Assembly (NCBI GenBank): GCA_038249195.1
Contig: JBBRWM010000011.1
Coordinates: forward strand, 5,410 to 69,409
Length of the DNA: 64,000 nt
Reading direction: 5' to 3'
Source of the DNA: Actinomycetota bacterium
GTDB taxonomy: Bacteria > Actinomycetota > UBA4738 > HRBIN12
The notes beneath the pieces were generated by a model. It had not been told where the DNA came from, did no database searches, and saw nothing but the letters and a program-made list of their open reading frames with translations. Positions 6,633 to 35,703 of the stretch are shown here, piece after piece (the first letter of the stretch is position 1; each line of letters opens with the position of its first letter). A program made the position numbers and the translations under genes.

Positions 6633-6702
6633 CTAGGTCACCCCCTCCGCATCAGCCCGCGAATCGCTGTAGGTTGGGAGATTCGAGGGAAGGGGGAACC
6701 GA

Positions 6703-7089: not shown

Positions 7090-7101
7090 CGGAGGCGACG
7101 A

Positions 7102-7134
7102 GGAAACCGCGGCGCAGGGAGGCGCCGCGGTTCC
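7102..7134. terminator. Hairpin between convergent genes (11-bp stem, AGGGAG loop)
   Basis: AACCGCGGCGC-agggag-GCGCCGCGGTT lies between the VOC stop (7089) and the DUF1059 stop (7180). Confidence 0.45.
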
Positions 7135-7179
7135 CGTCATCCGGCGCTCGGTCCGCGCCGCTTTGACGTCGATCCGAGA

Positions 7180-7332
7180 TCAGGCGCCGACCGGCTTGAG
7201 CTGGGCGATGACCTGCTCACGGGTAACGTCCATGCCGTGCTTGGCCGCCCCGTGCGCCTGGACAACGACGACGAGGTCATCCTCGATCCCGCGCGCGTAG
7301 AAGCCGCACTCGCAGGTGACTTCCTTGATCAT
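7180..7332 (-). CDS. DUF1059 family small protein (50 aa); not in the supplied track because it is under 60 aa
   Basis: Hand translation: MIKEVTCECGFYARGIEDDLVVVVQAHGAAKHGMDVTREQVIAQLKPVGA. A strong SD (AAGGAGGTGATCGC) sits directly before the ATG. Confidence 0.75.
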   Translation of the reverse strand: MIKEVTCECGFYARGIEDDLVVVVQAHGAAKHGMDVTREQVIAQLKPVGA

Positions 7333-7413
7333 GCGATCACCTCCTTGGGGCGGATACTAGGCAAGGGACGTTGGCGGAACGTTGGCGTCGTGCTCCCCGA
7401 TGGGACCACCTGC

Positions 7414-8178
7414 ATGGACGAGCCTCAGCTACGGATCTATCTCGTCGGCAACGTCGCGATCGAGCGCGGCGGCGTCCTGGTGGCCGAGAGCCGGTTCCCC
7501 GGCGGCCAGGGCCGGCTCGCCTTCGCGCTGCTCGCTTCGGAACGCCGCGACGCGCTGTCGACCGAGCACATCGCCGACGTCGTGTGGGACGGGATCCCGC
7601 CTACGGCGTGGGCCACGGCCCTGCGCGCGATCGTGAGCAAGCTGCGCGGCGTGCTCGCGCAGAGTGGAGCCGAGGCAACGATCGAGCATGCCTTCGGCTG
7701 CTACCAGCTGCGACTGCCCCCGGACGCTTGGATCGATGTCGAGGCCGCCGCGGCTGCGGCACACGACGCGGAGGCGGCGCTGCGATCCGGAGACCTCGCG
7801 GCCGCCAATGGGGAGGCGCTCGTCGCGAACGCGATCGCGCGACGACCGTTCCTCGAGGGCGCCGAGGGGGAGTGGGTGCAGCGAAAGCGGACGCAGCTGC
7901 GGACCATTCAGGTGCGAGCGTTGTCGTGCCGGGCCGAGATCGCGATCCGGCAAGGCGATCTCACGGGCGCCGCCGGGGACGCAGAGCGCATCATCGCGCT
8001 CGAGCCGTTCCGGGAGCGCGCGTACGTGACCCTCATGCGCGCGCACGTCGAGGCCGGCAACAACGCCGAGGCGCTCGCGACCTACGACCGCCTCCGCGAG
8101 ACGCTCGCCTCGGAGCTCGGCGCGAGCCCGTCTCCCGATTCCGCGGCCGCGTTCCTCGGCGTCCTTCGGGCGAACTGA
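7414..8178 (+). CDS. SARP/AfsR-family transcriptional regulator (winged-helix DNA-binding domain plus BTAD)
   Basis: LRIYLVGNVAIERGG..., the winged-helix segment WDG.PP..W...LR..VSKLR, and the BTAD helices ..RERAYVTLMRAHVEAGNNAEALATYDRLRETLASELGASPSP. Confidence 0.8.
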   Translation: MDEPQLRIYLVGNVAIERGGVLVAESRFPGGQGRLAFALLASERRDALSTEHIADVVWDGIPPTAWATALRAIVSKLRGVLAQSGAEATIEHAFGCYQLRLPPDAWIDVEAAAAAAHDAEAALRSGDLAAANGEALVANAIARRPFLEGAEGEWVQRKRTQLRTIQVRALSCRAEIAIRQGDLTGAAGDAERIIALEPFRERAYVTLMRAHVEAGNNAEALATYDRLRETLASELGASPSPDSAAAFLGVLRAN

Positions 8179-8221
8179 CCTCGTTCGCCGCGAGCCGTCA
8201 CGGATCCGGTTGGGTCCTGCG

Positions 8222-9124
8222 TCAGTCGGGCAGCACGAGGATGGGTTGGACCGCGGCGAGACCGGAGGCGAGCTCGTGCCAGGTCGATCCGGCGTCTTCG
8301 GAACCGAAGATGCGTCCGTCGGAGGTGCCGAACGCCGCGAACGATCCGTCGTTCAACGCATCCAGGCGATAGGTGTCGATGTTGTCGTCGAACCATCCAG
8401 GGAGCCCCGCCGTGCAGCGTTCGAACGAGCCGGCGGCGATGTCGCCCCTGTACACGGCGGCGCGACCACCACGCGGGCCGTTCGAGGCAGACACGAGGAG
8501 CGTGTCGCCGCAGACGACCACCGCGCGCGAGTACGGAGCGTCGAGCCCTTCGCTCCGCATCGTCCAGGTCGTACCGTGGTCCACGCTCGTCGCGAGCCCG
8601 CCGGCACAGGCGGCCAGGACGAAGCCCTCTGCGGTCGCGACCTGGTGGACGTCGGCGTCGATCTCGATCGTCGGGTTCCACGTGTGGCCACGGTCGCCCG
8701 TGTGGAGGATCCCCCCGACGTGCACGTTGACGTAGACGTCCTCGCCCCACTCAGACAGGGATCGGGTGGCGGGGGGTCCGCCCCAGGGTGTGTACCACTC
8801 GGAGCGACCTTCCGCGTCGTCGAACCCGACCACGGGCTCGAGCGTTTCGTCGGCGAGCCGGAACAGTCGAGCGTCCGACGAGCCGACATGGACGGCGTCG
8901 GTCATGGCGATGCAGGTCGCTTGATGGCCTTCCAGCGTGGCCACCAGCCGCCAGTCGGCCCCGGGTGCGTGCCAGACCTCCGATCGATCCACGATCGCCC
9001 AGAGCTCGGGGCCGTCGCGGACGATGGAGGTCACAGACCGACCGGCGAGTTGGGTAGGCCACGCGGGACCTCCGTCGCCGATCGCCTGGAGCCCGTCCCT
9101 GGTAGCAACCAGTATCCGGTGCAT
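8222..9124 (-). CDS. BNR/Asp-box repeat beta-propeller protein
   Basis: Repeated Asp-box-like S/T-x-D-x-G-x-T-W motifs (TGDRGHTW, SVDHGTTW, SEDAGSTW). Confidence 0.7.
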   Translation of the reverse strand: MHRILVATRDGLQAIGDGGPAWPTQLAGRSVTSIVRDGPELWAIVDRSEVWHAPGADWRLVATLEGHQATCIAMTDAVHVGSSDARLFRLADETLEPVVGFDDAEGRSEWYTPWGGPPATRSLSEWGEDVYVNVHVGGILHTGDRGHTWNPTIEIDADVHQVATAEGFVLAACAGGLATSVDHGTTWTMRSEGLDAPYSRAVVVCGDTLLVSASNGPRGGRAAVYRGDIAAGSFERCTAGLPGWFDDNIDTYRLDALNDGSFAAFGTSDGRIFGSEDAGSTWHELASGLAAVQPILVLPD

Positions 9125-9205
9125 CGCTCGATGTTCTCACGGGCTCGGGCGCAGCAACGATGTGAGGATCAGGTCCTTCTTCACCTCTGCCCGGCATCGG
9201 GCTTG

Positions 9206-9607
9206 CTAGGCGTCGTTTTTCCCGAGGGTTTCGTCGAACAGCTCGACGTACTCGTCCCCTTCGTGGTCGACGCCACCGGGGGCCGTGTCACGCACGCTCA
9301 CGGCTGCGTCCTCGGGCGCCACATAGGCCTCGCGCTGGGTCGTCGCCTCCGCCACCAGCTGGGCTTCGTCATCGACCGTGTCGGAATCTTCGATCGCGAG
9401 CTCGGTGTCGTTCTTGGGTGGGTCTGCGCGTTCCTCGGAGAGCCGCTGGTCCAGGGACTCGCCTCGCAGCTCTTCCTCCGCGGTCGTTCCGAACGACTCC
9501 GCGCCGAACGCGTGGTCGGCCTGCTCGATCATCGCCTCGAGATCCTCACCGGCGTCGTCCTCGGGGTCCACGTCGGCGTTCGGATCGACATCATCAGGAG
9601 TCGTCAT
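9206..9607 (-). CDS. Acidic hypothetical protein (DUF5709-like)
   Basis: A 133-aa, strongly Asp/Glu-rich ORF (..DDEAQLVAEATTQREAYVAPEDAAVSVRD..) with no competing ORF. Confidence 0.55.
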   Translation of the reverse strand: MTTPDDVDPNADVDPEDDAGEDLEAMIEQADHAFGAESFGTTAEEELRGESLDQRLSEERADPPKNDTELAIEDSDTVDDEAQLVAEATTQREAYVAPEDAAVSVRDTAPGGVDHEGDEYVELFDETLGKNDA

Positions 9608-9667
9608 GGCTCTTCCCTTCGGTTGCGTCCATGGTAGGGGGAACGGCGAAGGGCGCGAGCTGCGATC

Positions 9668-10264
9668 CTAGAGGATGAGCCCCTCGGGCAGAGGCACCGA
9701 CGCCATGAGGTCCTCAAGCTCCCACGCTGCCTCGACCGTGCGGACCCATTCGTAGCTGAGGCCCTTCGCCCCGAGAAACGTCACGCCCGCGGCGCGCATC
9801 CGCTCGATCCCGTCCTCGTGAGCGTCGCCGGGAGCCAGCACCGCGTCACGCACGACCACGACCCTGAATCCGCGGTCGAGGAGCCCTAAGGCCGACTGAG
9901 CCACGCACACGTCGGTCTCCATCCCGACGAGCACCGCCGTGCGCCGGCCCGTGGCTTCGACCGCCGCCAAGATCTCGGGGGCGTCGGCGAGACCGAACGT
10001 GGGCTTCGTGTGCCTGCGCGTCTCCTTCGGCAGGTGCGCGACGGCCTCGGGGAGCGTCGCACCGTTGCGGTCCGGCTCCTCCTCGGTGACCACCGTGGGG
10101 ACCCCGAGCAGGGTGGCGAGTGCGGCCACCCAGGCCACCCGCTGGACGAACGGTCCACGACCCTCGTCCTCGCCGAGCTTCGCGATGAACCCCGGCTGCA
10201 CGTCGATGACGCAGAGGAACGAGTCATCCACGTCGAGCAGACGCTCGCCCCTCCGCTCGCTCAT
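9668..10264 (-). CDS. Isochorismatase-family (cysteine) hydrolase
   Basis: FLCVIDVQPGF near the N-terminus and VLVGMETDVCVAQSA, which holds the catalytic Cys context. Confidence 0.8.
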   Translation of the reverse strand: MSERRGERLLDVDDSFLCVIDVQPGFIAKLGEDEGRGPFVQRVAWVAALATLLGVPTVVTEEEPDRNGATLPEAVAHLPKETRRHTKPTFGLADAPEILAAVEATGRRTAVLVGMETDVCVAQSALGLLDRGFRVVVVRDAVLAPGDAHEDGIERMRAAGVTFLGAKGLSYEWVRTVEAAWELEDLMASVPLPEGLIL

Positions 10265-10351
10265 CGACCTCCCACCCCCTACGGTCCTCTCATCCTAGGA
10301 AGGAGGATAGGATGCCCGCCCTGAGTGGCGTCCGCGACACATCCGCGGGCT

Positions 10352-11620
10352 TCACCAGTCGGGTCGCAAGGGCATGCGGCTGCGTCCTGCCGAGCTCCTC
10401 ACCGCGAGCACCTGGTGGACCTGGGTTTCTCCGGCCTCGAATCCGAGGGCGGAGGCGGCCATGTAGAGGTGCCAGATCCGCGCGCGCGGCCCGCCCACCT
10501 CGGCCACGGCTTCGTCCCAGTTGGCCTCGAGGTTCCCGACCCACGATCGCAGCGTGAGCCCGTAGTGCTCGCGCAGGTCCTCCACGTGGCGCACCTCGAG
10601 GCCGGCCACCCCGATCGTGGAGACCACGGACCCGACCTCGTGGAGTTCGCCGTCGGGAAAGACGTAGCGGTCCACGAAGCCCCTGCGTCGCAGGCGCGGC
10701 GGCGTCACGGGTGGGCGACGTCCCGGCCGCGCCCGCCGGCTCGCCGGGCGGGCGATCCCGTGGTTCAGCAGGCGGCCCTCGGGCCGTAGGAGTCGCACGA
10801 TCCCCCGGAAGTACAGGTCGAGGTGGCGGAGCCCGACGTGCTCGAACATGCCGATCGAGCTGATCGCGTCGAAGGGGCCGTCGCGCACGTCGCGATAGTC
10901 TTGCTCGCGGATCCGGACGCGATCGGCGAGTCCGGCCTCGGCGACCGCCTTGCGTCCCCAGTCGGCCTGCTCCCGCGAGAGCGTCACGCCGACGGCCTCC
11001 ACGCCGTGGCGGCGAGCGGCGTGCATGACCATGCCGCCCCAGCCGCACCCGATGTCGAGCAGGCGCATCCCCTCGCGGAGGCCGAGCTTGCGGCAGATCA
11101 GCTCGTACTTCGCGGCCTGAGCGTCCTCGAGTGTGTCCTCGGGGGTGGACCAGACCGCGCATGAGTACGTCATGGACGGCCCAAGGACGATGCGGTAGAA
11201 GGCGTTCGAGACGTCGTAGTGATGGGCGATGGCTGCGGCGTCGCGGTCCCGCGAGTGCCGCACGCCGTGCAGGCGAGCCTCCTCCCGCGGGGGCGCGAGC
11301 GGTCTCAGCGCGTCCAGTCCGGCGAGCTGAACCAGGCGGGCGATGTCGCGCGGAGGGATGCTCGCTTTGTTGAAGCGAGACCGGAGCGCGGCCAGCGCCT
11401 CGAAGATGTCGCCCTCGACGTCAAGGTCACCCGCCACATAGGCACGGCCCAGCCCGAGTTCGCCGGGGGCGGTGAGGATACGGCGGAGCGCGTCGGGGGA
11501 GCGGAACACCAGCGTCGCGCGCGCGTCGGCGGGACCGATCCGCTCCCCCTCGTAGGTCTCGACCGCGATGGGTACGTCGCCGAGCAGATCTTGGACGAAC
11601 GATGCCAGGGACGTCGACAT
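10352..11620 (-). CDS. cfa: Cyclopropane-fatty-acyl-phospholipid synthase family SAM-dependent methyltransferase
   Basis: HYDVSNAFYRIVLGPSMTYSCAVW, LLDIGCGWGG, and SIGMFEHVG. The ATG at 11620 is preceded by GGAGG with a 6-nt spacer. The track start at 11626 is a TTG two codons upstream. Confidence 0.85.
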   Translation of the reverse strand: MSTSLASFVQDLLGDVPIAVETYEGERIGPADARATLVFRSPDALRRILTAPGELGLGRAYVAGDLDVEGDIFEALAALRSRFNKASIPPRDIARLVQLAGLDALRPLAPPREEARLHGVRHSRDRDAAAIAHHYDVSNAFYRIVLGPSMTYSCAVWSTPEDTLEDAQAAKYELICRKLGLREGMRLLDIGCGWGGMVMHAARRHGVEAVGVTLSREQADWGRKAVAEAGLADRVRIREQDYRDVRDGPFDAISSIGMFEHVGLRHLDLYFRGIVRLLRPEGRLLNHGIARPASRRARPGRRPPVTPPRLRRRGFVDRYVFPDGELHEVGSVVSTIGVAGLEVRHVEDLREHYGLTLRSWVGNLEANWDEAVAEVGGPRARIWHLYMAASALGFEAGETQVHQVLAVRSSAGRSRMPLRPDW

Positions 11621-24950: not shown

Positions 24951-25487
24951 CTATCCTTCGATCGCGTCCTCGTTCGACCCGATGGCTCCCGTCTCGATCG
25001 ACCGTGCGAGCCGGTCGAGGAAGGGAGCCTGCGCAGCCTTGATCTTGCGGTGGGCCCTCTCCAGCTTGAACCACGCCACGCGATCGATCTCGGGGAACAC
25101 CTCGATCCTGCCGGAGCCAGGCGGCCATGGCATCTCGAACGTGTTGCTCACCGCCGCCGCAGGATCCACGTCTCCTTGCAGCGCCCACGCCACCACGACC
25201 TTTCCGGACTTCTGACGGATGTCGCCGAGTTCGAAGAGGGAGGCCTCGGGGGCGATCGGGTGGCCCGTCTCCTCCGCGAACTCACGGCGAGCCACGGCCT
25301 CGAGCTCCTCGCCCGGCTCTGATTCCCCCTTGAGCACCGTCCAGTCGCCGTCGTCCTTGCGCGCGAAGTAGGGGCCGCCGGGGTGACCCAGCAGCACCTC
25401 CAGGCCCGCTTCCCGAGCGCGCCACATCAAGATGCCGGCGCTGCGTCTGCCCGTCTTGTTCACTTTCGGCTTGCGAGGGTGCGCCAT
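24951..25487 (-). CDS. NUDIX hydrolase
   Basis: LLGHPGGPYF..WTVLKGESEPGEELEAVARREFAEETG is the Nudix box. Start at ATG 25487. Confidence 0.8.
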   Translation of the reverse strand: MAHPRKPKVNKTGRRSAGILMWRAREAGLEVLLGHPGGPYFARKDDGDWTVLKGESEPGEELEAVARREFAEETGHPIAPEASLFELGDIRQKSGKVVVAWALQGDVDPAAAVSNTFEMPWPPGSGRIEVFPEIDRVAWFKLERAHRKIKAAQAPFLDRLARSIETGAIGSNEDAIEG

Positions 25488-25583
25488 CGCGTGATGATGG
25501 CATCCACGCGGACCGGTGGCGACCGCCGACGGCGCCCGGATCCAACGACACCCGTGCCGCGGCCGGCTCGCTACGCTGGCGAC

Positions 25584-26822
25584 GTGGTTCCCCACCGCCG
25601 ACCGGGCGTTGCCGTGCGTCGACGCCGTGCCTTCGTCGGGCTGGTCGGCGTCCTGCTGCTGCTCGTCCTGGGCCTCACGCTGTTCGCGCCGAGGTCCTCA
25701 CAGGCGCCGTCGAGTGCCGACGCGCCGACGGGAGGCACCGACGGCTCGCCGGACCCCGGAGGGGCCGCATCGTCGATGCCGCCCGCGTACCTTGCCTGGA
25801 TGTCGGGGGGCTTCCCGCCCGATCTCCGTCGACGCGTCGACGCGTTGCCCGCGCTCGGGCGATCGGTCGTGATCGCCGGCGACACGTTGTGGATGACCGC
25901 GTCGCGCGACGCCGGCGGTACGGTGGTCGACCGCCCGACGTCCCCCTTCGCCGTGCCGATCGATGCCTTCGCGGTGAGCCCCGACACCTACGCCCCGTTC
26001 CTCCCCGCCGACGTCCGGGATCGGGTCGTGCACGTGCTCGATGCGGGGCACGCGGTCCTGGGCGCATCCAGCGCCGGTCTGCGAACGCTCGGCCCCGGCG
26101 GCTCGATGACGTTCGGGGCACACACCGTCAAGGTCGGCGCCGTCGTGCCCGACGCCGCGGTGGGCTGGAGCGAGATGATGGTCTCGCGGGAGGTGGGGAT
26201 CGCCCTGGGGATCACCGACGAGCGCTACCTCTTGGCGCAGCCCGATGGCACGCCCTCCGAAGCCACGTTCGAGCGATGGGTCGGTGGCCTGCTGCCCCGT
26301 GGCACGTCCCTTCGCGTCGTGGCCCCGGGCGGCAGCCGATACATGCGCGTGGGCAGCGGCGTGAACCCCCCGGTCGTGCTGAAGCAGACGTTCGGAGAGT
26401 TCAGCGCCCATCCGCAGGCCGACCCCGCCTACCTCACGGAAGACCCGTCGTGGGTGCACGCGCACATCCAGACCCGCACCGTGCCGCTACTGGGCCGGAT
26501 CACCTGCAACCGGCGGCTGTTCCCGGCGCTGATCGCGGCCCTCGACGACGTGCAGCGGGCGAGGCTGGGCGGCCTGATCCACACGAACTCCGGATGCTGG
26601 AACGCCCGCACGGTGGCGCGCAGCCCAACCGCTCCACCCTCCGACCATGCCTACGGCGCCGCTGTGGACATCAACGCTCCGGAGAACGCGTACGGCGCGA
26701 CGCCCTCGATGGATCCGCGGATCGTCCGGATCTTCCGCGCCCACGGGTTCAACTGGGGCGGTGCGTTCTTGATCCCCGACGGCATGCACTTCGAGTTCGG
26801 GAAGCCCGACCCCGAGACATGA
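25584..26822 (+). CDS. M15 family metallopeptidase (VanY/D-Ala-D-Ala carboxypeptidase-like), membrane-anchored
   Basis: SDHAYGAAVDIN and DGMHFEF are the zinc ligands. The N-terminal TM helix is VGLVGVLLLLVLGLTLF. The start is uncertain (25494, 25584 or 25614). Confidence 0.75.
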   Translation: MVPHRRPGVAVRRRRAFVGLVGVLLLLVLGLTLFAPRSSQAPSSADAPTGGTDGSPDPGGAASSMPPAYLAWMSGGFPPDLRRRVDALPALGRSVVIAGDTLWMTASRDAGGTVVDRPTSPFAVPIDAFAVSPDTYAPFLPADVRDRVVHVLDAGHAVLGASSAGLRTLGPGGSMTFGAHTVKVGAVVPDAAVGWSEMMVSREVGIALGITDERYLLAQPDGTPSEATFERWVGGLLPRGTSLRVVAPGGSRYMRVGSGVNPPVVLKQTFGEFSAHPQADPAYLTEDPSWVHAHIQTRTVPLLGRITCNRRLFPALIAALDDVQRARLGGLIHTNSGCWNARTVARSPTAPPSDHAYGAAVDINAPENAYGATPSMDPRIVRIFRAHGFNWGGAFLIPDGMHFEFGKPDPET

Positions 26823-28099
26823 GTCGACGACGCTGGACCTCGGTCGCGGCCCTGTTCGCGCTCGCCGCCTGCACATCGGCGACCGCCGGGCGGGACCCGA
26901 CGCCGACCACCGAGCCGGTGCCCAGGCCGACCGCGACGGTCGCCGCACCGTCCGTCGGATCGCCCACGCCCACTCCCTCGGCGATCACCACCCGGACCGT
27001 CACGGCGGACTGGACGCGGGCGATCGACGCCGCAGTCGGGGGTCGCGACGTCTCGGTTGCCGTGGGCGTGAACGACCGGATCTTGTTCGAGCATGCCGGC
27101 GAGGAGCCACGGATCCCGGCTTCGAACCAGAAACTCCTGACCTCGATGGCCGCGTTGGCCATCTTCGGCCCCGATCATCGGTTCCCGACCGTCGCCGCCG
27201 CCCGTCGTCCGATCGGGGCGGGTGTGGTCCGCGGCGACCTCTGGCTCGTGGGATCCGGCGATCCTGAGCTGGACGCCGCGTCCTTGGCGCGGCTCGCCGA
27301 CGCCGTTTCCTCTGCAGGGGTATCGCGCATCACCGGCGGCGTGATCGGCGACACGTCGGCGTTCTCCCGAGCGTGGTGGGCGCCCGGATGGGTGCCGGGG
27401 CTCTCGCGGAGCTACGTGACGCGGACGACCGCGCTCGCCTTCGACGGGAACGTCGGCAGGGGGCTTCCCGAGGCAGCGGCGGCGGCCGCGCTCACGGCCG
27501 CCCTGCGCGGTCGAGGCATCGCGGTCGCCCACGACCCTGCGGCCGGCGTGGCGCCCACGGACCTTCACGCGGTGGCCCTCACACGATCCCGGCTGCTGCG
27601 AGACCTCCTCGCGGTGCAGAACCATGGCTCGGTGAACTTCTACGCCGAGACCCTCCTGAAGGCGATCGGTGCCGCGGCGAACCACGGCGCCGGCTCGACG
27701 GCCGGAGGCGCCGAAGCCGTGGCTGCGTGGGCGGGGTCGCTCGGTGTGGCGGCCCGGGTCGAGGACGGTTCCGGGCTCTCCCATCAGGACCTGGTCTCGG
27801 CGCGAGGGCTCGCGACCTTGCTCCTGCTCGCTCAAGATCTGCCCTGGGGACGTGCCCTCGACGCCTCGCTCGCCCCATCCGGCCAGGGCACGATGGAGGG
27901 CAGGCTCGTCGGCGTCCCCGTCCGCGCCAAGACGGGGACCCTCTTCGAGACGCCGGTCTCGGCGTTGTCCGGCTACGTCACCGACGCGGGCGGCGCCAGG
28001 GTCGCGTTCTCGGTGATCTCCCGCGGACTCGACAAGGGCACGGCCGTCGCCATCGAGGACGCCATCGTGCGCACCCTCGCAGGCGCTCACGTCGCGTGA
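26819..28099 (+). CDS. dacB: D-alanyl-D-alanine carboxypeptidase/endopeptidase (PBP4 family, peptidase S13) lipoprotein
   Basis: Lipobox LAAC, SNQK (S-x-x-K), and KTGT. The start overlaps the previous stop as ATGA. Confidence 0.85.
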   Translation: MSRRRWTSVAALFALAACTSATAGRDPTPTTEPVPRPTATVAAPSVGSPTPTPSAITTRTVTADWTRAIDAAVGGRDVSVAVGVNDRILFEHAGEEPRIPASNQKLLTSMAALAIFGPDHRFPTVAAARRPIGAGVVRGDLWLVGSGDPELDAASLARLADAVSSAGVSRITGGVIGDTSAFSRAWWAPGWVPGLSRSYVTRTTALAFDGNVGRGLPEAAAAAALTAALRGRGIAVAHDPAAGVAPTDLHAVALTRSRLLRDLLAVQNHGSVNFYAETLLKAIGAAANHGAGSTAGGAEAVAAWAGSLGVAARVEDGSGLSHQDLVSARGLATLLLLAQDLPWGRALDASLAPSGQGTMEGRLVGVPVRAKTGTLFETPVSALSGYVTDAGGARVAFSVISRGLDKGTAVAIEDAIVRTLAGAHVA

Positions 28100-28139: not shown

Positions 28140-29303
28140 ATGTTCCGGATGGCGGTGGGCCACAGCGACGACATCGACGCCGACGTTGCCGCGCGCGTCA
28201 TCGTCGATCAATGCCTCGAGGGGCTCGACGGCCTCGAGCCGAAAGCCGGCCTCCTCTTCTCCGCATGGGAATCCGACCACGAGGTGGTGCTCAGCAGCGT
28301 CAGGGAGCGCGTGCCGGGCATCGAGCTCATCGGCTCGACCTCCTCGGGCGAGATGTCTTCGGAGATGGGCTACCAGGAGGACTCCATCACCCTCGCGTTG
28401 TTCGCCTCCGACGAAGTGGACATCACCGGCGGTGTGGCCGAGCGCCTATGGGACGACGTGCCGGGCGCCGCTCGCTCGGCGGTCGAGCAGGCCCGGAACA
28501 AGACGGAGAAGGAGCCCCGGCTATGCATCGTTACCCCGTCGATCGGCGGAGACGTGCGGGCGCTGCTCGACGCGCTGCGGGGGACGCTTGGTCCGGACGT
28601 GCCCGTGATCGGGGGCGGAGCGGCACCGCGATCGAATCGCCATCCCGCCGGGGACAGCTGGCAGTTCTTCGGCAACCGGGTCGTGACCGACGCCGTTCCC
28701 CTTCTGCTCCTCTCGGGACCCCTCGCCTACTCATTCGGGACGGATGCGGGTTGGCGCCCGGTCGGACCGAGGGGCCGCGTCACCGACGTGTCGGGTGGCA
28801 CGGTGCGCGAGATCGACGGCAGGCCCGCCCTCGCCTTCTACGAGCGGTACTTGGGCGAGGGGTTCGAGCCTGCGTTCGCGACCCCCCTCGCCGTGTTCGA
28901 TGAGGGTTCCGAGCGGTTCTACCTTCGCGCGCCCGTGCGTCATGATCAAGGAACGGGAGCCGTCACGGTGAGCGGCGACGTGCAGGAAGGCGCCGAGGTT
29001 CAGCTGACGACGGCGGCTACCGACGAGATCTTCGACGGCGCCCGCTCCGCGTTGTCGCAGGCGATGGACCAGTTCCCCGACGGCGGGAAGCCCGAGGCGG
29101 CCTTGATCTTCTCCTGCGCGATCCGCAAGTACCTCCTTGGCACGCGCACGGGCACGGAGTACGAGATCCTTCGCCAGATGCTGGGCGACGGCGTCCCCGT
29201 GTGCGGGTTCTACTCATTCGGAGAGATCGCACCGCTCGATGAAGGCGGAGAGGCCCGCTACCACAACGAGACGATGGTCGCCTTGCTCATGGGCACGAAC
29301 TAG
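28140..29303 (+). CDS. FIST N/C-domain sensory protein
   Basis: 387 aa with the typical FIST layout (..GLLFSAWESD.., IGGGAA.., ALIFSCAIRKYLLG.., GFYSFGEIAP). Confidence 0.8.
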   Translation: MFRMAVGHSDDIDADVAARVIVDQCLEGLDGLEPKAGLLFSAWESDHEVVLSSVRERVPGIELIGSTSSGEMSSEMGYQEDSITLALFASDEVDITGGVAERLWDDVPGAARSAVEQARNKTEKEPRLCIVTPSIGGDVRALLDALRGTLGPDVPVIGGGAAPRSNRHPAGDSWQFFGNRVVTDAVPLLLLSGPLAYSFGTDAGWRPVGPRGRVTDVSGGTVREIDGRPALAFYERYLGEGFEPAFATPLAVFDEGSERFYLRAPVRHDQGTGAVTVSGDVQEGAEVQLTTAATDEIFDGARSALSQAMDQFPDGGKPEAALIFSCAIRKYLLGTRTGTEYEILRQMLGDGVPVCGFYSFGEIAPLDEGGEARYHNETMVALLMGTN

Positions 29304-29308
29304 CCGCC

Positions 29309-30094
29309 GTGCCCGATCCGAGCCCCGACCCGGATCTCACGAAGCAGATCCGGGTGCTCGCCCGCAAGCTCGAGCGACTGCAGACGAACACGCGCCAGCT
29401 CGAAGAGATCCGTGATGTGAACTCGAGGCTCCTGTCGAACCTCATGCACGAGCTCGACGAGGAGCGCACCCGATCCACCGAGCTTCTCCTGAACATCCTT
29501 CCGCGGCAGATCGTCGACCGTCTGGACCGCGGTGAGTCACTCATCGCGGATCGGTACGACGACGTGTCGGTCTTGATGAGCGATCTCGTTGGCTTCACGA
29601 GGATCTCTTCCCAACTGGCTCCCGATGTCTTGGTGACGGAGTTGAACCGGTTGTTCTCGGAGTTCGACGCCCTCTGCGCCTCGAGCGGGATGGAGAAGAT
29701 CAAGACGATCGGGGACGCATACATGGCGGTGGGAGGGCTTCCCGGCACCCGCGGCGATCACGTCGCCGCGGCCGCCGACATGGCGCTCCTGATGGTGGAC
29801 GCGCTCCACCGGATGAACGAGACCACGAAGCGAGGATGGCGGATCCGCATCGGCGTGCACACGGGCCAGGCCGTCGCAGGCGTGATCGGTAGTTGGAAGT
29901 TCGCGTACGACGTGTGGGGCGACACCGTGAACATGGCGAGCAGGCTCGAGTCGTCGTCGCTGCCAGATCGGATCCAGATCTCGTCGTCGGTGGTTGAGGC
30001 CCTTGGGACGGCGTACGTGGTCGAGGCCCGCGGCAGGATCGACCTCAAGGGCAAGGGGCAGACGGAAACGTCCTTCCTGATCGGTCGGCGGTAG
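29309..30094 (+). CDS. Class III adenylate cyclase with an N-terminal coiled-coil (signalling helix)
   Basis: VLMSDLVGFT, KTIGDAYMAV, GVHTGQAVAGVIG, and YDVWGDTVNMASRLES. The Lys/Asp specificity pair suggests ATP as substrate. It starts 5 nt after the FIST stop. Confidence 0.85.
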   Translation: MPDPSPDPDLTKQIRVLARKLERLQTNTRQLEEIRDVNSRLLSNLMHELDEERTRSTELLLNILPRQIVDRLDRGESLIADRYDDVSVLMSDLVGFTRISSQLAPDVLVTELNRLFSEFDALCASSGMEKIKTIGDAYMAVGGLPGTRGDHVAAAADMALLMVDALHRMNETTKRGWRIRIGVHTGQAVAGVIGSWKFAYDVWGDTVNMASRLESSSLPDRIQISSSVVEALGTAYVVEARGRIDLKGKGQTETSFLIGRR

Positions 30095-30098
30095 CCGA

Positions 30099-30539
30099 TC
30101 AGTCGTCCGGGGAGGTTCCGGAGCGGTAGACGTGGGCGGCGGCGCGAAGCGTGTCCACCAGCACGTCCAGCGGCGCGTTCTTCTCGATGAGGTTGGCGGC
30201 GCCCACGAACTCCGCGGCCCACCGCGACCCTTGCTCCGAGTACGCGGTCAAGATGACGACCTGGGTGCGCGGCTCCTGCGCCTTGATCATCACCGTGGCT
30301 TCCAGGCCGTCGATCTCCGGCATCCGCAGGTCCAGCAAGACGACCTCCGGGTGCAGCGAGGCCACCTTGTCCCCGGCCTCCGCGCCGTTGCGCGCGTCGC
30401 CGACGACATCGAAGCCGAACGCGGGCAGGCTGTCGCGCAGCACGAGCATCGTCTGGCTGTCGTCGTCGGCGATCAGCAGCCGGATGGGATCCTCGAGGAA
30501 CTCGGCCTCTTCGTGCGACGGGTCGACGGGCATGGCCAC
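30099..30539 (-). CDS. Single-domain response regulator (CheY-like receiver)
   Basis: LLIADDD, VLLDLRMPEIDG (phospho-acceptor Asp), VVILTAY, and IEKN. No output domain. Confidence 0.85.
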   Translation of the reverse strand: MAMPVDPSHEEAEFLEDPIRLLIADDDSQTMLVLRDSLPAFGFDVVGDARNGAEAGDKVASLHPEVVLLDLRMPEIDGLEATVMIKAQEPRTQVVILTAYSEQGSRWAAEFVGAANLIEKNAPLDVLVDTLRAAAHVYRSGTSPDD

Positions 30540-30775
30540 ACCTCGTTCGCGATCCGACCTTCGGGTCGCTCCCTCAAACGGTCGACATCACTCGGCGTGG
30601 TCTTTAGTCGGGACGCCGCCGGATCGGCGCCCGGTCGGTGTGTCCCGCGTCGGCCCGCGCCGGCCATCGCGGTTCGGCGTCGGTCCTCTGGGGGACTTGC
30701 GAATCACGACGTTGGCCGACTGTTCGGGTCGGCCCTCGAGCCTAGGCTCAGGTGACCGGCTCGAGCGGAGGCTCC

Positions 30776-31411
30776 GTGGCCGAAGGACGAACGCGCAGCG
30801 CCCAGCCGGCCGTCCACAAGGCGGCTTGGGACGATGACATCGAACGGCTCTTCGAAGCCTGGCTCAGACGGGTGGCGGCGGCCGAGGCCGGCCACCGGCA
30901 GTCCTCGGACCGGCTCCGTCGCGGTTCCTTGCTGCTCGGGATCCCCGTCGTCGTCCTTACCACGATCGTGGGCACGAGCGTGTTCGCCTCGCTCAACACG
31001 GCCGATGTGCAGATCGGCCTCCGAGCCCTGGTCGGTTCGCTGAGCATCCTCGCCGCGGCGCTCTCGAGCCTGCAGACGTTCCTGCGACTCGGGACGCGGG
31101 CCGAGGCTCATCGGATCGCAGCGTTCCGCTACGAGACGCTCCGACGCGACATGACCCAGGAGCTCGCGATCCCTCGGGCCTCGCGGGCCGACGCCGTGCA
31201 TCAGCTCGACGGTGTGCGTCTCCGCTTGGACCGCTACGCGAAGGAGTCGCCGACCATCGACGAGCGGCGTTGGGCGAAGCTCGAGCACCAGTTCCACCTG
31301 TCGAAGGTGCCGCCGGATCCGCAGTGGGCCGATCGGAAGATCCGGATCCCCGAGCCGGAACCCGCCGCGAGCGACGAGGGTACGCAGGGAGGAGCCGGCC
31401 ATGGATTGTGA
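30776..31411 (+). CDS. SLATT-like (DUF4231-like) two-transmembrane protein
   Basis: An N-terminal helix (WLRRVAAAEAGHRQSSDRLRR), two TM helices (LLLGIPVVVLTTIVGTSVFASL and LRALVGSLSILAAALSSLQTFL), then RAEAHRIAAFRYETLRRD. The GTG at 30776 follows GCGGAGG; an alternative GTG is at 30752. Confidence 0.6.
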   Translation: MAEGRTRSAQPAVHKAAWDDDIERLFEAWLRRVAAAEAGHRQSSDRLRRGSLLLGIPVVVLTTIVGTSVFASLNTADVQIGLRALVGSLSILAAALSSLQTFLRLGTRAEAHRIAAFRYETLRRDMTQELAIPRASRADAVHQLDGVRLRLDRYAKESPTIDERRWAKLEHQFHLSKVPPDPQWADRKIRIPEPEPAASDEGTQGGAGHGL

Positions 31412-32423
31412 CCTTGTGCTCGAGGGCGGGGGCGTGAAGGGCATCGGGCTCGTGGGGGCGTTCACGGAACTGCGGAACGCCCGCTACGCCGTGCACCGGG
31501 TCGCGGGAACGTCGGCGGGCGCCATCGTGGGCGCGCTCATCGCGTCCGGCATGGGGCCGGAGGAGCTGCAGCGCGTCATGCGGACCGTCGATTACGGACG
31601 GTTCCAGGACGAGGGCTTCATCGATCATCTCGGCCTCGTCGGCAAGGGCCTGTCGATCCTATTCGAGAAGGGGATCTACGAGGGCCGCTACCTGGTGGCG
31701 TGGCTTGATGGGCTCCTCGCCGGCCTCGGCCACCGCACGTTCGGGGACCTGCGCATCGACGATCCCAACTCGTCGCTCCCGCCCGAGAAGGCGTACAAAC
31801 TCGTCGTGATGACGTCGGACGTCACGCGGGGGGAGCTGGTGCGCCTTCCCTGGGATTACCCGAGGTACGGTCTCAAAGCCGACGATCAGCTGGTGGCCGA
31901 CGCCGTGCGCGCATCCATGTCGATCCCGTTCTTCTACGAGCCGCTCCGTTTCACCGGCCGCGACGCGGCCGGTGAAGCTGTGCACTCCTACATGGTGGAC
32001 GGCGGGATGCTCTCGAACTTCCCGATCGAGGTGTTCGACCGCACCGACGGCAAGCCACCGCGCTGGCCGACCTTCGGGATCAAGCTCTCGGCCAAGCCCG
32101 CGGCGGCGGTCCTTCAGCGATTCGACGTGAAGGGAACGTTGGGGTTGGCGCGTGCCATGGTGGGGACGATGACGAACTTCCACGACCAGATGCACATCGA
32201 CGATCCGTCGGTCCTGGCTCGCACGATGTTCGTGGACACGGTGCAGGTGAAGGCGACCGATTTCGATATCGACACGGCCACGCAGGACGAGCTCTTCGTG
32301 AACGGGCGCCGAGGAGCGCAGAAGTTCTTGGCGGAGTGGGATTTCGAGCGGTACGTGACGCAGTTCCGATCGGCCGATACGATCGATCTCACGTCCCATG
32401 AGACCCCGGTCCAGGCCGGCTGA
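31401..32423 (+). CDS. Patatin-like phospholipase
   Basis: LEGGGVKGIG (oxyanion hole), AGTSAGA (G-x-S-x-G), and VDGGMLSN (DGG). The ATG follows GGGAGGAG and overlaps the SLATT-like ORF by 11 nt. Confidence 0.9.
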   Translation: MDCDLVLEGGGVKGIGLVGAFTELRNARYAVHRVAGTSAGAIVGALIASGMGPEELQRVMRTVDYGRFQDEGFIDHLGLVGKGLSILFEKGIYEGRYLVAWLDGLLAGLGHRTFGDLRIDDPNSSLPPEKAYKLVVMTSDVTRGELVRLPWDYPRYGLKADDQLVADAVRASMSIPFFYEPLRFTGRDAAGEAVHSYMVDGGMLSNFPIEVFDRTDGKPPRWPTFGIKLSAKPAAAVLQRFDVKGTLGLARAMVGTMTNFHDQMHIDDPSVLARTMFVDTVQVKATDFDIDTATQDELFVNGRRGAQKFLAEWDFERYVTQFRSADTIDLTSHETPVQAG

Positions 32424-32512
32424 GCCGCGGAGGTTCGACCATCGCGAGCCGCTCGATCCCCGGCTTCCTACCCAGCACGTCGGGGTTCCGATTCGCGAAC
32501 GACTTCCCCCAC

Positions 32513-33136
32513 GTGCCCGTTCGGCACATCGGGATCCCCGGCGTCATCAGCCTCCCCATCGGCGACGCCTCGAACGGGCTGTGCGGCGGCATGGCGTTCG
32601 CCGCGCGCGACTATTTCGAAGCCGAGCGACCTCCGCCGCCGGACGAGGTCGCTCCCGGGAGCGGGCCGCTGTTCGACTACCTCTGCGAACGCCTCTTCGA
32701 CAGCTTCGATCTGCCGTGGGGTCCCGCACGATATCTGGAGCTGATGAGCCCGCTGCTGCCCGACGGCGAATCGCTGTGGAGTCGCGTGGGCTTGGTGCCG
32801 CACGGGCGGGCGTGGCGCATGGTGCACGGGGAGTGGCCCAAGGTTCGGGCGGCCCTCGATGCCGGGCAGCCCGCGACGCTCGGTCTCATCAAGGTCAGAT
32901 CATCCGATCCGCGGCAGCTGAAGCAGGACCATCAGGTGCTGGCCTACGGGTATTCCGAGGAAGGAGGGGCCCTCACCCTGCGGGTCTATGACCCTAACCG
33001 GCCAGGGCGCGACGACGTGACACTGACCCTCGACCTCGAGGACGGGGTCGATCCGGCTACGTTCGGCGCCTCGGACCTGCGCGAGCCGGTCTTCGCGTTC
33101 TTCCGCGTCGCCTACGAGTTGGCTACCCCTCCCTGA
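32513..33136 (+). CDS. Hypothetical protein with a papain-fold (C39-like) Cys/His arrangement
   Basis: NGLCGGMAFAARDYF (candidate nucleophile) and DHQVLAYGYSEEGGALTLRVYDPN (candidate His/Asp region). The coding-like frame is open from 32402. A possible ATC start at 32441 lies 6 nt after GGAGGT. Confidence 0.6.
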   Translation: MPVRHIGIPGVISLPIGDASNGLCGGMAFAARDYFEAERPPPPDEVAPGSGPLFDYLCERLFDSFDLPWGPARYLELMSPLLPDGESLWSRVGLVPHGRAWRMVHGEWPKVRAALDAGQPATLGLIKVRSSDPRQLKQDHQVLAYGYSEEGGALTLRVYDPNRPGRDDVTLTLDLEDGVDPATFGASDLREPVFAFFRVAYELATPP

Positions 33137-33163: not shown

Positions 33164-33775
33164 CTACTCCGCGGAGCGCTGCTTGCGATCCGGGCGGACG
33201 TAGTCCTCCTCGGACTCGTTCCACACCTCGCCCACGTTCTCCACGTTGAACCCGTACTCGAACACGAGCGTGCCGCCGTAGGCCGCGCCGAACAGCACGC
33301 ATGCTCCCGCCAGGACCGACAACACGAGCCACCCGAGCTGGGTTTGTGCCCGGTCGAAGTCCGTGATCCGCAGCACGAGGTTCACGATCGTGAGGAGGGT
33401 CACCGTGATCATCACCGTGGCGTGCCAGTTGATCGTTCGCCAGACCTGGGTGTGTTTGGCGCGCCCGATCGGCCCCGACTTTCGGTCGCGCGGGATCCCC
33501 TTCCACCAGTCGAAGAACCCGGTGAGCACCGCGCCCAGGCTGACGATGAACCCCGCCACCATCACGAAGGTCGCGGCGGCGAAGAAGTCCTGCGCCTTCG
33601 GATCGTGCGCGCTCGAGACGTAGGAGATCAGGTCGAAAACCGCGGCGAGCGCGTAGCACGCGATGGGGAAGTCGGTCAGCGGAGGATGCGACGGCTTGCC
33701 CGTGAACCCCCGCACCCCTTGGAACCGGCGACCCTTCAGGCGCAACGTGGGTCGGATCGAGTAGAGCTTCGGCAT
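33164..33775 (-). CDS. DUF2231 domain membrane protein
   Basis: HPPLTDFPIACYALAAVFDL, followed by further helices. Confidence 0.7.
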   Translation of the reverse strand: MPKLYSIRPTLRLKGRRFQGVRGFTGKPSHPPLTDFPIACYALAAVFDLISYVSSAHDPKAQDFFAAATFVMVAGFIVSLGAVLTGFFDWWKGIPRDRKSGPIGRAKHTQVWRTINWHATVMITVTLLTIVNLVLRITDFDRAQTQLGWLVLSVLAGACVLFGAAYGGTLVFEYGFNVENVGEVWNESEEDYVRPDRKQRSAE

Positions 33776-33908
33776 GATCCCTCCTCTCAGGGCGACGCGA
33801 GGAGGAACCCCCTCGACCGTCCGCATCATGGCATGAACGGTTGGGGTAGCCTCGACGAGGATGTCGTGGTCGTCGAGGCCGCGGCGGCTCGAGAACGGAG
33901 GTGCACCG

Positions 33909-34289
33909 GTGCGCTGGGTCGTGACGTTCGCATTCGTGCTAGGACTGCTTGCGACGCCCGTGGTGGCGCAGGCGCATCATCGGCCCACCAGCTATTGCAG
34001 TCCCACCGGCGACATCTGCCAGAGCACGACGAAGGTCCACGGGATCCGAACCCTGCGGATCTCGCTCGCCGCCCGCTACTTCGGGAGGTACCGCCTCTGC
34101 GTGACGGCGCCCGACGACACCACCGTGTGCAGGAGGTTCCGCGTCCACAGGCATGGCCCGATCTGGTCGTCATCGATCAAGTGGGCGGCGCAGTTCCCCC
34201 CGAGTGGCCACGGCAAGTACGAGGTGGCGTGGAGATCATTGCCGAGCAACGCCCGGGTGGGCAGGATCCTCGGCTTCCACGTCATCTGA
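33909..34289 (+). CDS. Small secreted hypothetical protein
   Basis: The GTG follows GGAGGTG. The signal peptide is (M)RWVVTFAFVLGLLATPVVAQA, and the mature part contains Cys. Confidence 0.55.
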   Translation: MRWVVTFAFVLGLLATPVVAQAHHRPTSYCSPTGDICQSTTKVHGIRTLRISLAARYFGRYRLCVTAPDDTTVCRRFRVHRHGPIWSSSIKWAAQFPPSGHGKYEVAWRSLPSNARVGRILGFHVI

Positions 34290-34354
34290 GGACCGGGTGG
34301 TGGCGGGGCTCTTGGTCCGATGACCGTGGCGACCGCCACTGGAAGGAGCGTCCC

Positions 34355-34807
34355 ATGAGCAAGAAGCCCAGGCCCATCCTCATGCCGAGTGAGGTCTCAA
34401 GCAGGGTTGGGTTCTTCGACCGATTCGCGGGACTGTCCGCCAAGCTCGCCAGTCGCGCCCCTTTCTTCGCCTTCTGCCTGCTGCTCGTCTTCCTGTGGCT
34501 GATCCAGGGCGTGGCCCTCATCGTCTCCAAGGGGACGCACGCGTTCCTCGACCCCCAGTATCAGCTGGAGATCAACACAACGACGACGATCGTGACGTTC
34601 CTGATGGTCGCCCTGCTGCAGAACAGCCAGACACGAACGGATCAGGCCACGCAACACAAGCTCAATGCCATCGCCGACGGTCTCGCCGACCTGATGAAGC
34701 ATCTGGCGGACGAGCACCCGGATTCCTCCCTCGACAAGGACATGAGGGAGCTGCGAACGTCGGTGGGCCTCGAGACCCGAGAGAGCACGTCCAAGCACAA
34801 CCGTTGA
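34355..34807 (+). CDS. Low-affinity iron permease family protein
   Basis: YQLEINTTTTIVTFLMVALLQNSQTRTDQATQHKLNAI is the family signature. SD GGAAGGAG. Confidence 0.75.
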   Translation: MSKKPRPILMPSEVSSRVGFFDRFAGLSAKLASRAPFFAFCLLLVFLWLIQGVALIVSKGTHAFLDPQYQLEINTTTTIVTFLMVALLQNSQTRTDQATQHKLNAIADGLADLMKHLADEHPDSSLDKDMRELRTSVGLETRESTSKHNR

Positions 34808-34869
34808 GCTCGGCGAGGGCGCGCGGCGGCCCTGCACGGCGGTCGCCCGGCGGGCGTTTGGGGGCCGGC

Positions 34870-35703
34870 CTAGGCCCTGACCGGATGGGCCATCGGCGGG
34901 ACGTCCGCGCGCCCCTTCGCGTGCTTGGCCTCGTACATGAGCTCATCGGCCTTTCCGACCAGGTCATCGATGGAGCCCACGGCGTGGTCGAGCTGGATGA
35001 TCCCCACGCTGAAGTCGACGCCGACGGGCACCAGCTCCGAGCGGACGCGCGAGACGACGGTCTCGGCTCCATCGCGATCGGTATGGGGCAGGAGCACCAC
35101 GAACTCGTCGCCGCCGATGCGCGCGACGAGGTCGGAAGGTCGCAATGACGTGCCGAGAGCGGAGGCCACCGACCGCAGCAACTGGTCACCGGCGGCGTGG
35201 CCACGTTCGTCGTTGATCCGCTTGAAGTTGTCCAGATCGAGATAGATGAGTGACAGCGGCCCTCCGTAGCGACGCGACGAGTACATCTCCCTCTGGGCCA
35301 CCTCCTCGAACCACCGGAAGTTCGCCACGCCCGTGAGCGGGTCGGTACGCGCGAGTGCTCGCTCCGTCTGGTGAGCGGTTCGGAGTCGCGACACGACGAT
35401 CACCACGACGACGAACACGCCCAGACGGGTCCCCGCGTTCCACACGGGGTACAGGCTGTGCGTCCCGCCGCTCGCGAGATCGCCGAGCAATCCCGCGGCC
35501 GCGCAGACGCCCGCCATCGCGAGGCCGTAGGCGCATCCCGCGTACGCGGTGGCGAGCAGAACGGGAGCGAGGTAGATGAGCGCGAAGCTGAGGTAGACGC
35601 CGGTGGCGAAGTCGATCCAGCCGATGGCGACCGCCATGACCAAGGCCACGCCGAGGATGGCGACCGGGGACCGCCGAGCGAAGGAACGATCGAGAGCGTT
35701 CAT
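34870..35703 (-). CDS. Membrane-anchored diguanylate cyclase (GGDEF)
   Basis: DPLTGVANFR, DLDNFKRINDERGHAAGD, and RIGGDEF, with an RPSD (RxxD I-site) 5 residues upstream. N-terminal hydrophobic helices. Confidence 0.9.
   Translation of the reverse strand: MNALDRSFARRSPVAILGVALVMAVAIGWIDFATGVYLSFALIYLAPVLLATAYAGCAYGLAMAGVCAAAGLLGDLASGGTHSLYPVWNAGTRLGVFVVVVIVVSRLRTAHQTERALARTDPLTGVANFRWFEEVAQREMYSSRRYGGPLSLIYLDLDNFKRINDERGHAAGDQLLRSVASALGTSLRPSDLVARIGGDEFVVLLPHTDRDGAETVVSRVRSELVPVGVDFSVGIIQLDHAVGSIDDLVGKADELMYEAKHAKGRADVPPMAHPVRA

Follow-up and report, generated by a model that had tools for sequence, protein, structure and literature searches.

What is the function of an operon that sets a two-transmembrane protein beside a phospholipase and a papain-fold protein? 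The question is posed by a stretch of 64,000 nt from an Actinomycetota bacterium (the window, GC content ~70%), in which positions 30776-33136 of the plus strand are packed with three same-strand open reading frames (ORFs). ORF1 codes for a SLATT protein, ORF2 for a patatin and ORF3 for a predicted papain-fold hydrolase, and in each of them the GC content of third codon positions (0.84–0.88) is of the coding type. The three genes form one operon and very probably a functional module. The reading we favour, tentatively, is that of a regulated envelope-demolition effector cassette that may lead to cell death or lysis, of the abortive-infection or programmed-lysis type. Related contigs and genomes are referred to by L-numbers. 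The nearest relatives of the window are uncultured, soil-derived Actinomycetota metagenome-assembled genomes (MAGs); L005, a 2.66-Mb contig ('uncultured Actinomycetes bacterium MFD04944.bin.1.51'), is syntenic with the window, and its proteins are 93–97% identical for the genes compared.

Gene packing and linkage across genomes

ORF1 and ORF2 overlap by 11 nt, ORF2 is followed by ORF3 after a gap of 17 nt, and each gene is preceded by a separate Shine–Dalgarno (SD) sequence. The SLATT and patatin genes are the translationally coupled core pair of the operon.

Linkage of the three genes was surveyed with both ORF3 and SLATT as anchors. The ORF3-anchored survey covered 40 species-representative loci from GTDB genomes, with neighbours taken within 3 kb. 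A patatin gene was found in 18 of these, 14 of them also with a SLATT gene and four without; SLATT without patatin was present at two loci (one with a GH25 gene), a CHAT-STAND gene at five (one with GH25) and a cyclase only at one. In the SLATT-anchored survey, which used metagenome contigs with enough flanking sequence, relatives of at least 55% identity had a patatin gene downstream in 17 of 21 cases, and ORF3 was also present in nine of the 12 SLATT-patatin pairs with enough flank. Neither partner was found beside SLATT paralogues of less than 45% identity (37 of 37).

Two gene orders occur, SLATT-patatin-ORF3 as in the window, and ORF3-SLATT-patatin. Sorted by synteny, the 26 cassette loci make up 10 groups; the order seen in the window is spread over at least seven contexts. 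Genome OY969934.1 carries a SLATT-patatin pair lacking ORF3 (L132) and, ~45 kb off, a solo ORF3 (L023). SLATT and patatin are a tight core, and ORF3 is a frequent, detachable third part. The earlier note on this DNA, written from the sequence by itself, had raised the question of co-conservation; the three genes do travel together (all three at 14 of 40 loci, and the core pair in 17 of 21 cases), but not as an obligatory triad, because ORF3 is also found alone, ~45 kb from the pair, or with GH25 or CHAT-STAND genes.

Some individual loci show further features. Two ORF3-SLATT-patatin cassettes, the second of them fragmented, were seen in one MAG (CAVUTN01; L014 and L033); since the two contigs have the same flanking genes, this may reflect strain variants binned together, or an artefact of assembly, and not a true duplication. 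Frameshift-like breaks in the patatin gene occur in several Microflora Danica (MFD) MAG loci (L004, L014 and L031). In OY969934.1, a glycosyltransferase with a GT4-conflict (PF20706) match is encoded at 9384-10895 of L132, ~2.4 kb from the SLATT-patatin pair.

The SLATT and patatin proteins

ORF1 is a member of the NCBIfam family SLATT_4 (NF033632), for which the cut-off is 55 bits and ORF1 reaches 106 (E = 1.6e-30); against Pfam SLATT_4 (PF18186) alone it scores 20.5 bits, under the gathering score of 27. It also matches the CBASS '2TM effector' models of PADLOC (3.5e-15). The hydropathy profile gives two hydrophobic segments, at about residues 49–74 (TM1) and 80–103 (TM2), and in the alignment of homologues this transmembrane (TM) pair is followed by the invariant motifs LQTF.R and RY..LRR and a conserved, charged helix of the pattern R..YE.LRR, ending in a variable, proline-rich C-terminal tail. 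The family score, hydropathy and motifs agree with the earlier assignment of ORF1 as a SLATT-type protein with two TM helices. SLATT proteins are said to have been defined by Burroughs et al. in 2015 (NAR). Among phage protein families, ORF1 matches phrog_36926, which carries no functional annotation, at 2.3e-29.

ORF2 scores 114.3 bits against Pfam Patatin (PF01734; gathering score 27.7, E = 1.1e-32). Its motifs GGGVKG (residues 9–14), GTSAG (Ser38) and DGG (Asp200) are intact, and are invariant across 34 homologues. The protein is a complete patatin, as had been proposed together with its own SD and its 11 nt overlap with the ORF1 stop, and neither a signal peptide nor a TM segment was seen in its hydropathy profile. 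By sequence, the nearest solved relatives are PlpD, VipD and ExoU, with the CBASS lipase matching weakly. It matches the PADLOC 'phospholipase effector' models (1.3e-10), and its score against the CBASS_lipase/CapV equivalog model NF041079 is 22.4 bits, well under the cut-off of 200. By its sequence matches, ORF2 is best described as a generic bacterial patatin. The AlphaFold model of the patatin is poor (pLDDT 60, with the C-terminal third below 50); Foldseek matches this low-confidence model to PlpD, CapV and CapE, the latter two aligned over the full length, a ranking which therefore cannot settle whether ORF2 is CapV-like.

ORF3 represents a large papain-fold family

Both NGLCGGM and DHQVLAYGY...YDPN occur as motifs in ORF3. 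From 5.8 billion proteins, a search recovered ~2050 relatives at E<=0.001 in a library of representatives at 50% identity, nearly all of them 'hypothetical proteins' of ~231 aa from Actinomycetota MAGs. In a diverse set of these (159 domain hits from 150 representatives at 50% clustering), four residues are nearly invariant: Cys48 (141 of 143), His164 (146 of 147), Asp184 (143 of 147) and Asn186 (146 of 146). An AlphaFold model built from 52 sequences has a pLDDT of 87.5 and a pTM of 0.87, and places Cys48 at the N-terminus of helix 48–60, His164 at the opening of strand 164–174, and Asp184 and Asn186 just after strand 177–183. As modelled, ORF3 is an active-looking enzyme of papain (clan CA) topology.

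Of PDB entries, Foldseek places first the toxin domain at the C-terminus of an effector from the type VI secretion system (T6SS) of a Bacteroides (9jdd_A, E = 6e-3, probability 1.0, TM-score 0.32–0.38). The viral models that it matches include an AvrRpt2-like protease and, at E = 0.028, the Lysin A of a mycobacteriophage. Sequence profiles gave no match to ORF3 in Pfam at E<=1, nor in NCBIfam, PADLOC or PHROGs, and PDB sequences gave none at E<=10. No curated papain-fold family recurs among 115 diverse members with the ORF3 domain. The proposal that ORF3 is a papain-fold protein is upheld by the topology and the near-invariant Cys, His and Asp, whereas membership of the C39-like, Peptidase_C39_2 or BtrH_N families finds no Pfam hit or recurring family to support it. 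No signal peptide was evident in the hydropathy profile of ORF3.

The same 115 relatives, most of them multidomain, were surveyed for fusion partners. B_lectin is the most frequent (14 of 115 members), followed by N_BRCA1_IG (five members), DUF346, FG-GAP and DUF7910/fascin (a beta-trefoil; four each), Ricin_B and Aegerolysin (three each), MIR and Crystallin (two each), and fucose lectin, CARDB and PASTA (one each). The partners are chiefly carbohydrate-binding or beta-propeller/beta-trefoil modules, and two architectures include NTPases, namely a Trypsin-nSTAND1-ORF3 domain-WD40 protein of 2675 aa and a fusion of KAP NTPase to the ORF3 domain. No obvious signal peptide was present in eight fusion proteins inspected. 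Since the domain is combined with so many lectin and sensor modules, its architectures suggest that it behaves as a portable catalytic 'warhead' with varied targeting or sensor modules. The catalytic domains of endolysins, polymorphic toxins and the effectors of conflict systems are likewise combined with varied modules.

A conserved AUC start codon for ORF3

Homologues of ORF3 (~231 aa) align over the full translation from position 32441, where the window has an ATC codon, 7 nt downstream of a GGAGG SD. The codon is kept in 16 loci, namely the window and L003-L007, L009-L011, L024, L028, L030, L031, L035, L046 and L047, the ORF3 proteins of which are 54–93% identical to that of the window. 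In several of these an in-frame stop lies 21–48 nt upstream, with no canonical start in between, and over codons 8–24 the differences between loci are mostly synonymous. A start at GTG 32513, the first canonical one, would cut off F9, F18 and N20, which are invariant or nearly so in the family. Because the ATC is conserved, stops lie upstream, codons 8–24 vary synonymously and these three residues are conserved, the comparison of loci indicates that ORF3 is translated from AUC at 32441 rather than from GTG 32513. The earlier note had allowed a third same-strand ORF to begin 17–89 nt after ORF2; the ORF is borne out, and the ambiguity settles at 17 nt. Where ORF3 is the first gene or stands alone, most loci have an ATG or GTG start. 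A −1 frameshift fusing the patatin to ORF3 was considered as another explanation and rejected: no slippery heptamer is present, and L009, L035 and L024 have an in-frame stop 21–24 nt before the ATC and no other start between the two.

In Escherichia coli, initiation at AUC runs at ~1–2% of that at AUG, and native non-canonical starts have been confirmed there only for infC and pcnB, both with AUU (bioRxiv 10.1101/063800). A start as weak as AUC fits a dangerous protein that is held scarce.

Partner exchanges in related cassettes

Related cassettes retain the general plan and replace individual genes. In L002 and L021, a SLATT-like protein (33% identical to ORF1) is followed by a GH25 muramidase, which starts straight with its catalytic domain and lacks a signal peptide, and by ORF3 3–4 nt later. 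L125-L128 (1260-6693) and L018 encode, in this order, a CHAT-AAA_16 STAND protein, GH25 and ORF3. L129 has the order ORF3, SLATT (57% identical to ORF1), patatin and an M15_4 + PG_binding_1 protein. In L050 (491-5620) and L051, SLATT (62% identical to ORF1) is followed in turn by a C1-like papain peptidase, an M15_4 + PG_binding_1 protein and a 779-aa patatin-like protein, the central region of which is hydrophobic and TM-like. The papain peptidase of the C1-like type scores just under threshold (18.3 bits vs 20.7), and its C-terminal part looks frameshifted; a kinship of ORF3 with the L050 peptidase was rejected by hhalign (probability 0.2%). Papain-fold peptidases of two sequence-unrelated families occupy equivalent positions. 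At L131, a patatin-ORF3 pair and an operon of the order BTAD-SLATT_4-unknown-PNP are divergently oriented, and genes for CHAT and Trypco1 proteins are adjacent.

The GH25 and M15 proteins of these cassettes match phage endolysin PHROGs, and no signal peptides were found in their GH25, M15 or C1-like enzymes. The common theme is a two-TM SLATT gene with predicted cytoplasmic enzymes that act against membrane lipid or peptidoglycan.

A CHAT (caspase-like) + AAA_16 STAND protein of ~1230 aa adjoins ORF3, sometimes by way of a signal-less GH25 gene, at L125-L128, L018, L036, L027, L019 and L022. ORF3 lies beside CHAT-STAND genes in at least five contexts. This adjacency suggests that STAND-type sensor systems also employ ORF3, as their effector or as a partner.

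A proposed function for the cassette

From the domain identities, the operon packing, the co-conservation and permuted order of the genes, the partner swaps and the fusions, we infer a trigger, membrane pores, envelope substrates and a lethal outcome, which would be connected as follows. After the trigger, SLATT would open or perturb the membrane in the manner of a holin, and the cytoplasmic patatin would break down membrane phospholipids. ORF3, once its substrate became reachable, would cut an envelope substrate that is linked to glycans, with the peptides of peptidoglycan as the most plausible target; until then its AUC start would hold the enzyme scarce. The exchange of the partners of SLATT for GH25, M15 and C1 enzymes points to the envelope as the target, and a two-TM SLATT protein beside signal-less hydrolases follows holin–endolysin logic. 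Taken together, the exchanged partners and the fusions to lectins make an executioner hydrolase the more likely role of ORF3, ahead of a dedicated activator.

A bolder version, which we consider very unlikely, is that of a chromosomal, phage-independent autolysis device, in which SLATT is the holin for signal-less hydrolases of lipid and wall and the trigger is a loss of start-codon fidelity at the AUC (for instance through lower IF3 activity, or translational stress in infection). The cassette would then be a suicide switch that senses the state of translation, built around a new papain-fold family of wall hydrolases.

Should the cassette prove to be a module for death or lysis, the catalogue of bacterial conflict systems would gain an unnamed, sensor-less effector operon from a large group of uncultured soil Actinomycetota. 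A papain-fold family that lacks curated annotation would be placed in a functional context for the first time, and the long-standing but largely untested prediction that membranes are permeabilised by SLATT proteins could be examined in a concrete case. The AUC start would be one of the rare natural examples in which bacteria keep a non-canonical start across species, and could itself be a regulatory feature.

Surrounding genes

The cassette and its immediate upstream context are set out in Table 1. A same-strand operon of a FIST sensor gene and a class III nucleotidyl cyclase gene ends 680 nt upstream of the cassette, and a divergent, opposite-strand gene lies between the two. The cyclase matches the PycC hidden Markov model (HMM) of PADLOC generically (50 bits) and Guanylate_cyc far better (194 bits). 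Among the neighbours no SMODS or SLOG gene was found in an operon with ORF1, this cyclase operon being the only candidate. The statement of the earlier note that there is no nucleotidyltransferase partner was too strong, as cyclases also flank related cassettes; a functional tie is putative.

Table 1. Features of the cassette and its upstream context in the window
Feature	Position	Strand	Basis or remark
FIST sensor gene	28140-29303	+	Pfam FIST, FIST_C; upstream context only
Class III nucleotidyl cyclase gene	29309-30094	+	Guanylate_cyc 2.7e-57; upstream context only
Orphan response-regulator receiver gene, divergent from ORF1	30099-30539	-	Pfam Response_reg 1.3e-20; context only
SD of ORF1, GGAGG	30767-30771	+	4 nt ahead of GTG; read from the sequence
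ORF1, SLATT_4 two-TM protein, 211 aa, GTG start	30776-31411	+	NCBIfam NF033632, PADLOC, hydropathy, alignment
SD of ORF2, GGGAGGAG	31387-31394	+	Inside the 3' end of ORF1; 6 nt ahead of ATG
ORF2, patatin-like phospholipase, 340 aa, ATG start	31401-32423	+	Pfam PF01734, invariant motifs
ORF2 Ser38 codon	31512-31514		GTSAG motif
SD of ORF3, GGAGG	32429-32433	+	7-nt spacer to ATC
ORF3, papain-fold Cys-His-Asp predicted hydrolase, 231 aa, ATC start	32441-33136	+	Homologue lengths, conserved ATC, AlphaFold model
ORF3 Cys48 codon	32582-32584		
ORF3 His164 codon	32930-32932		
ORF3 Asp184 codon	32990-32992		
ORF3 Asn186 codon	32996-32998		

About 3–5 kb upstream (region 25383-28099) lie an ORF for a PBP4-like D-Ala-D-Ala carboxypeptidase and, at 25383-26822, one for a Peptidase_M15_4 protein, which has a hydrophobic segment at its N-terminus. 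In L050 and L129 an M15_4 + PG_binding_1 protein is encoded within the cassette; in the window, the nearness of an M15_4 gene is probably a coincidence. Downstream (33164-35703) are genes for a DUF2231 membrane protein (minus strand), a Fet4-like iron permease (plus) and a membrane GGDEF diguanylate cyclase (minus); DUF2231 adjoins the cassette in L030 as well, on its other side. An Rfam scan of the window, including the region upstream of ORF1, found no riboswitch or other RNA, and a scan for consensus promoters and terminators was uninformative in DNA of 70% GC.

Alternative explanations

Several observations weigh against an envelope-demolition cassette, and part of them are what would be expected of a housekeeping role. 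Pore formation by SLATT proteins is, to our knowledge, a published prediction only, and phage data lend no support to SLATT as a holin: a tblastn search of phage genomes was empty, and among viral contigs a related SLATT_4 protein (39% identity) is found on two only, L133 and L134 from IMG/VR (~4500-10500), where it lies beside DUF2971 and uncharacterised genes in an island of 35–42% GC within DNA of ~60% GC, which is not a lysis cassette. ORF3 has no homologue in GenBank phages or IMG/VR, its sequence shows no detectable kinship with known peptidoglycan hydrolases, and after the T6SS domain its PDB matches by Foldseek (C1 papains, xylellain and staphopain) are weak (TM-scores 0.2–0.38 overall, E > 0.05). 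None of the surveyed partners is near ORF3 at 14 of the 40 loci (about one third), and no sensor or trigger gene is conserved alongside the cassette in the surveyed loci. One synteny group comprises 12 loci and looks vertically inherited; together with a patatin identity of 71–86% over more than 100 clusters, this shared site resembles the inheritance of a housekeeping gene over that of a fast-moving defence gene. Neighbour profile scans around the window locus found no defence or phage genes, and a defence-island location, on which the earlier note had proposed a check, gives way to ordinary chromosomal genes, which include those for M15_4, the PBP4-like protein, and cyclic di-GMP and cyclic nucleotide (cNMP) signalling. 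All this, with the high sequence conservation and constant protein lengths, would suit housekeeping remodelling of the envelope, in which SLATT-patatin serves lipid turnover and ORF3 processes wall or lipoproteins in growth, division or differentiation, with no role in conflict. We regard this as unlikely. The three proteins lack export signals, though their presumed substrates are outside or in the membrane; SLATT and patatin are known or predicted conflict effectors elsewhere; and ORF3 or its domain is tied to CHAT-STAND, nSTAND1 and KAP NTPases, with Trypco1 nearby. A conserved, very weak start codon would be unusual for such an enzyme, and the cassette occupies at least 10 contexts, with ORF3 not always part of it.

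Of the readings that keep a conflict role, activation by proteolysis would make ORF3 a regulatory cysteine protease that cleaves SLATT or patatin, in the manner of the gasdermin systems. The papain-type catalytic set of ORF3, its tight adjacency to patatin or SLATT and the C1 papain-family peptidase in the equivalent position in L050 all suit this; the low expression expected from AUC would be enough for a catalytic activator, and the variable, proline-rich tail of SLATT could be the part removed. It is nonetheless improbable, as ORF3 often occurs away from SLATT and patatin (solo, with GH25 or CHAT-STAND, or ~45 kb off), SLATT-patatin pairs exist that lack ORF3, and the mostly lectin-fused domain points to a glycoconjugate target over a single partner protein. 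A cNMP trigger, as in Pycsar or CBASS, would be compatible with envelope demolition: the neighbouring class III cyclase, here FIST-regulated, would gate SLATT and/or patatin. Besides the upstream operon and its PycC match, four cyclase architectures lie within 1–2 genes of cassettes with patatin-ORF3 order (the window and L005; L009 and L035; L006, L007, L028 and L031; L004), and cyclase-STAND genes are found near GH25-ORF3 loci. The patatins CapV and CapE, which are of the same size as ORF2, are activated by nucleotides, and for SLATT proteins a response to nucleotides has been predicted (PMC7159879). Against this, Pfam, PADLOC and NCBIfam detected in ORF1-3 neither a cNMP-binding nor a SAVED domain, nor any other domain known to bind a ligand, the PycC match is far below that to Guanylate_cyc, and an opposite-strand receiver gene separates cyclase and cassette. 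The cyclases are moreover non-orthologous (~30% identity) and such cyclases are apparently numerous in these genomes, and the 12-locus ORF3-first clade has none nearby, so that a trigger of this kind is also improbable. Lysis genes release colicins and tailocins from producer cells, and by analogy ORF3 could be a bacteriocin-like antibacterial toxin, with SLATT and patatin (or GH25) lysing some producers for its release. Its best PDB fold match, albeit weak, is an antibacterial T6SS toxin domain, and the B_lectin, ricin, aegerolysin and crystallin modules of its relatives are typical of lectin-like bacteriocins and toxins, again without signal peptides. No immunity-like gene was found conserved beside ORF3 in the loci examined, however, the ORF3 of the window has no targeting module, and a weak AUC start would be odd for a cargo protein; of all the readings considered here, this one we hold to be extremely improbable.

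Comparison with known systems

As the earlier note had stated, no named defence system is matched, the PADLOC models giving only generic effector profiles. Searches of the literature on SLATT with patatin or holin, and on anti-phage systems of patatin, 2TM protein and cysteine protease, turned up no account of the triad. The effector parts are familiar, their arrangement is unnamed, and the third gene comes from a large family that has no curated annotation.

Both effector domain types of the cassette are found in CBASS (CapV/CapE, and 2TM/SLATT), and the patatin is of the size of CapV. Unlike CBASS, it has no CD-NTase or SMODS gene among its neighbours and no SAVED or ligand-sensing domain in ORF1-3; it pairs two effectors with a third enzyme and has no signal generator. 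It is not a Pycsar system either, as the PycC match is generic and no cNMP-binding domain was found in ORF1-3 with Pfam. Phage holin–endolysin(–lipase) cassettes, such as the holin, LysA and LysB of mycobacteriophages, likewise set a small two-TM gene beside signal-less envelope hydrolases and a lipolytic enzyme. A small TM protein with a signal-less muralytic enzyme is seen in L002, L021, L050 and L129, and in the window the putative candidate for that enzyme is ORF3 only. In contrast to the phage cassettes, this one is chromosomal with phage genes absent around the window locus, SLATT is not a recognised holin family, and the lipase is a patatin and not cutinase-like as LysB is.

Kaur, Burroughs, Iyer & Aravind 2020 (PMC7159879) list SLATT, lysozyme and a peptidoglycan peptidase of papain-like type among the effectors of NTP-dependent conflict systems in multicellular bacteria. 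The position of ORF3 beside CHAT-STAND and Trypco1 genes, and the fusion of its domain to nSTAND1-Trypsin-WD40 and KAP NTPase, are common ground with those systems; the window cassette differs in having no NTPase, vWA-MoxR, GTPase or EAD component, and ORF3 matches no curated model. Bacterial gasdermins are switched on by proteases, and there too a membrane-permeabilising protein (here a predicted one) lies beside a cysteine-type peptidase of a family also found with STAND or repeat sensors; the cassette has no gasdermin fold, and ORF3 often occurs away from the membrane protein. Judged by its domain content and gene context, the cassette is placed outside CBASS, Pycsar, phage lysis cassettes and gasdermin systems. 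By analogy, it would work most like the membrane effectors of CBASS combined with a holin–endolysin–lipase lysis cassette, and it builds on known effector logic without departing from it.

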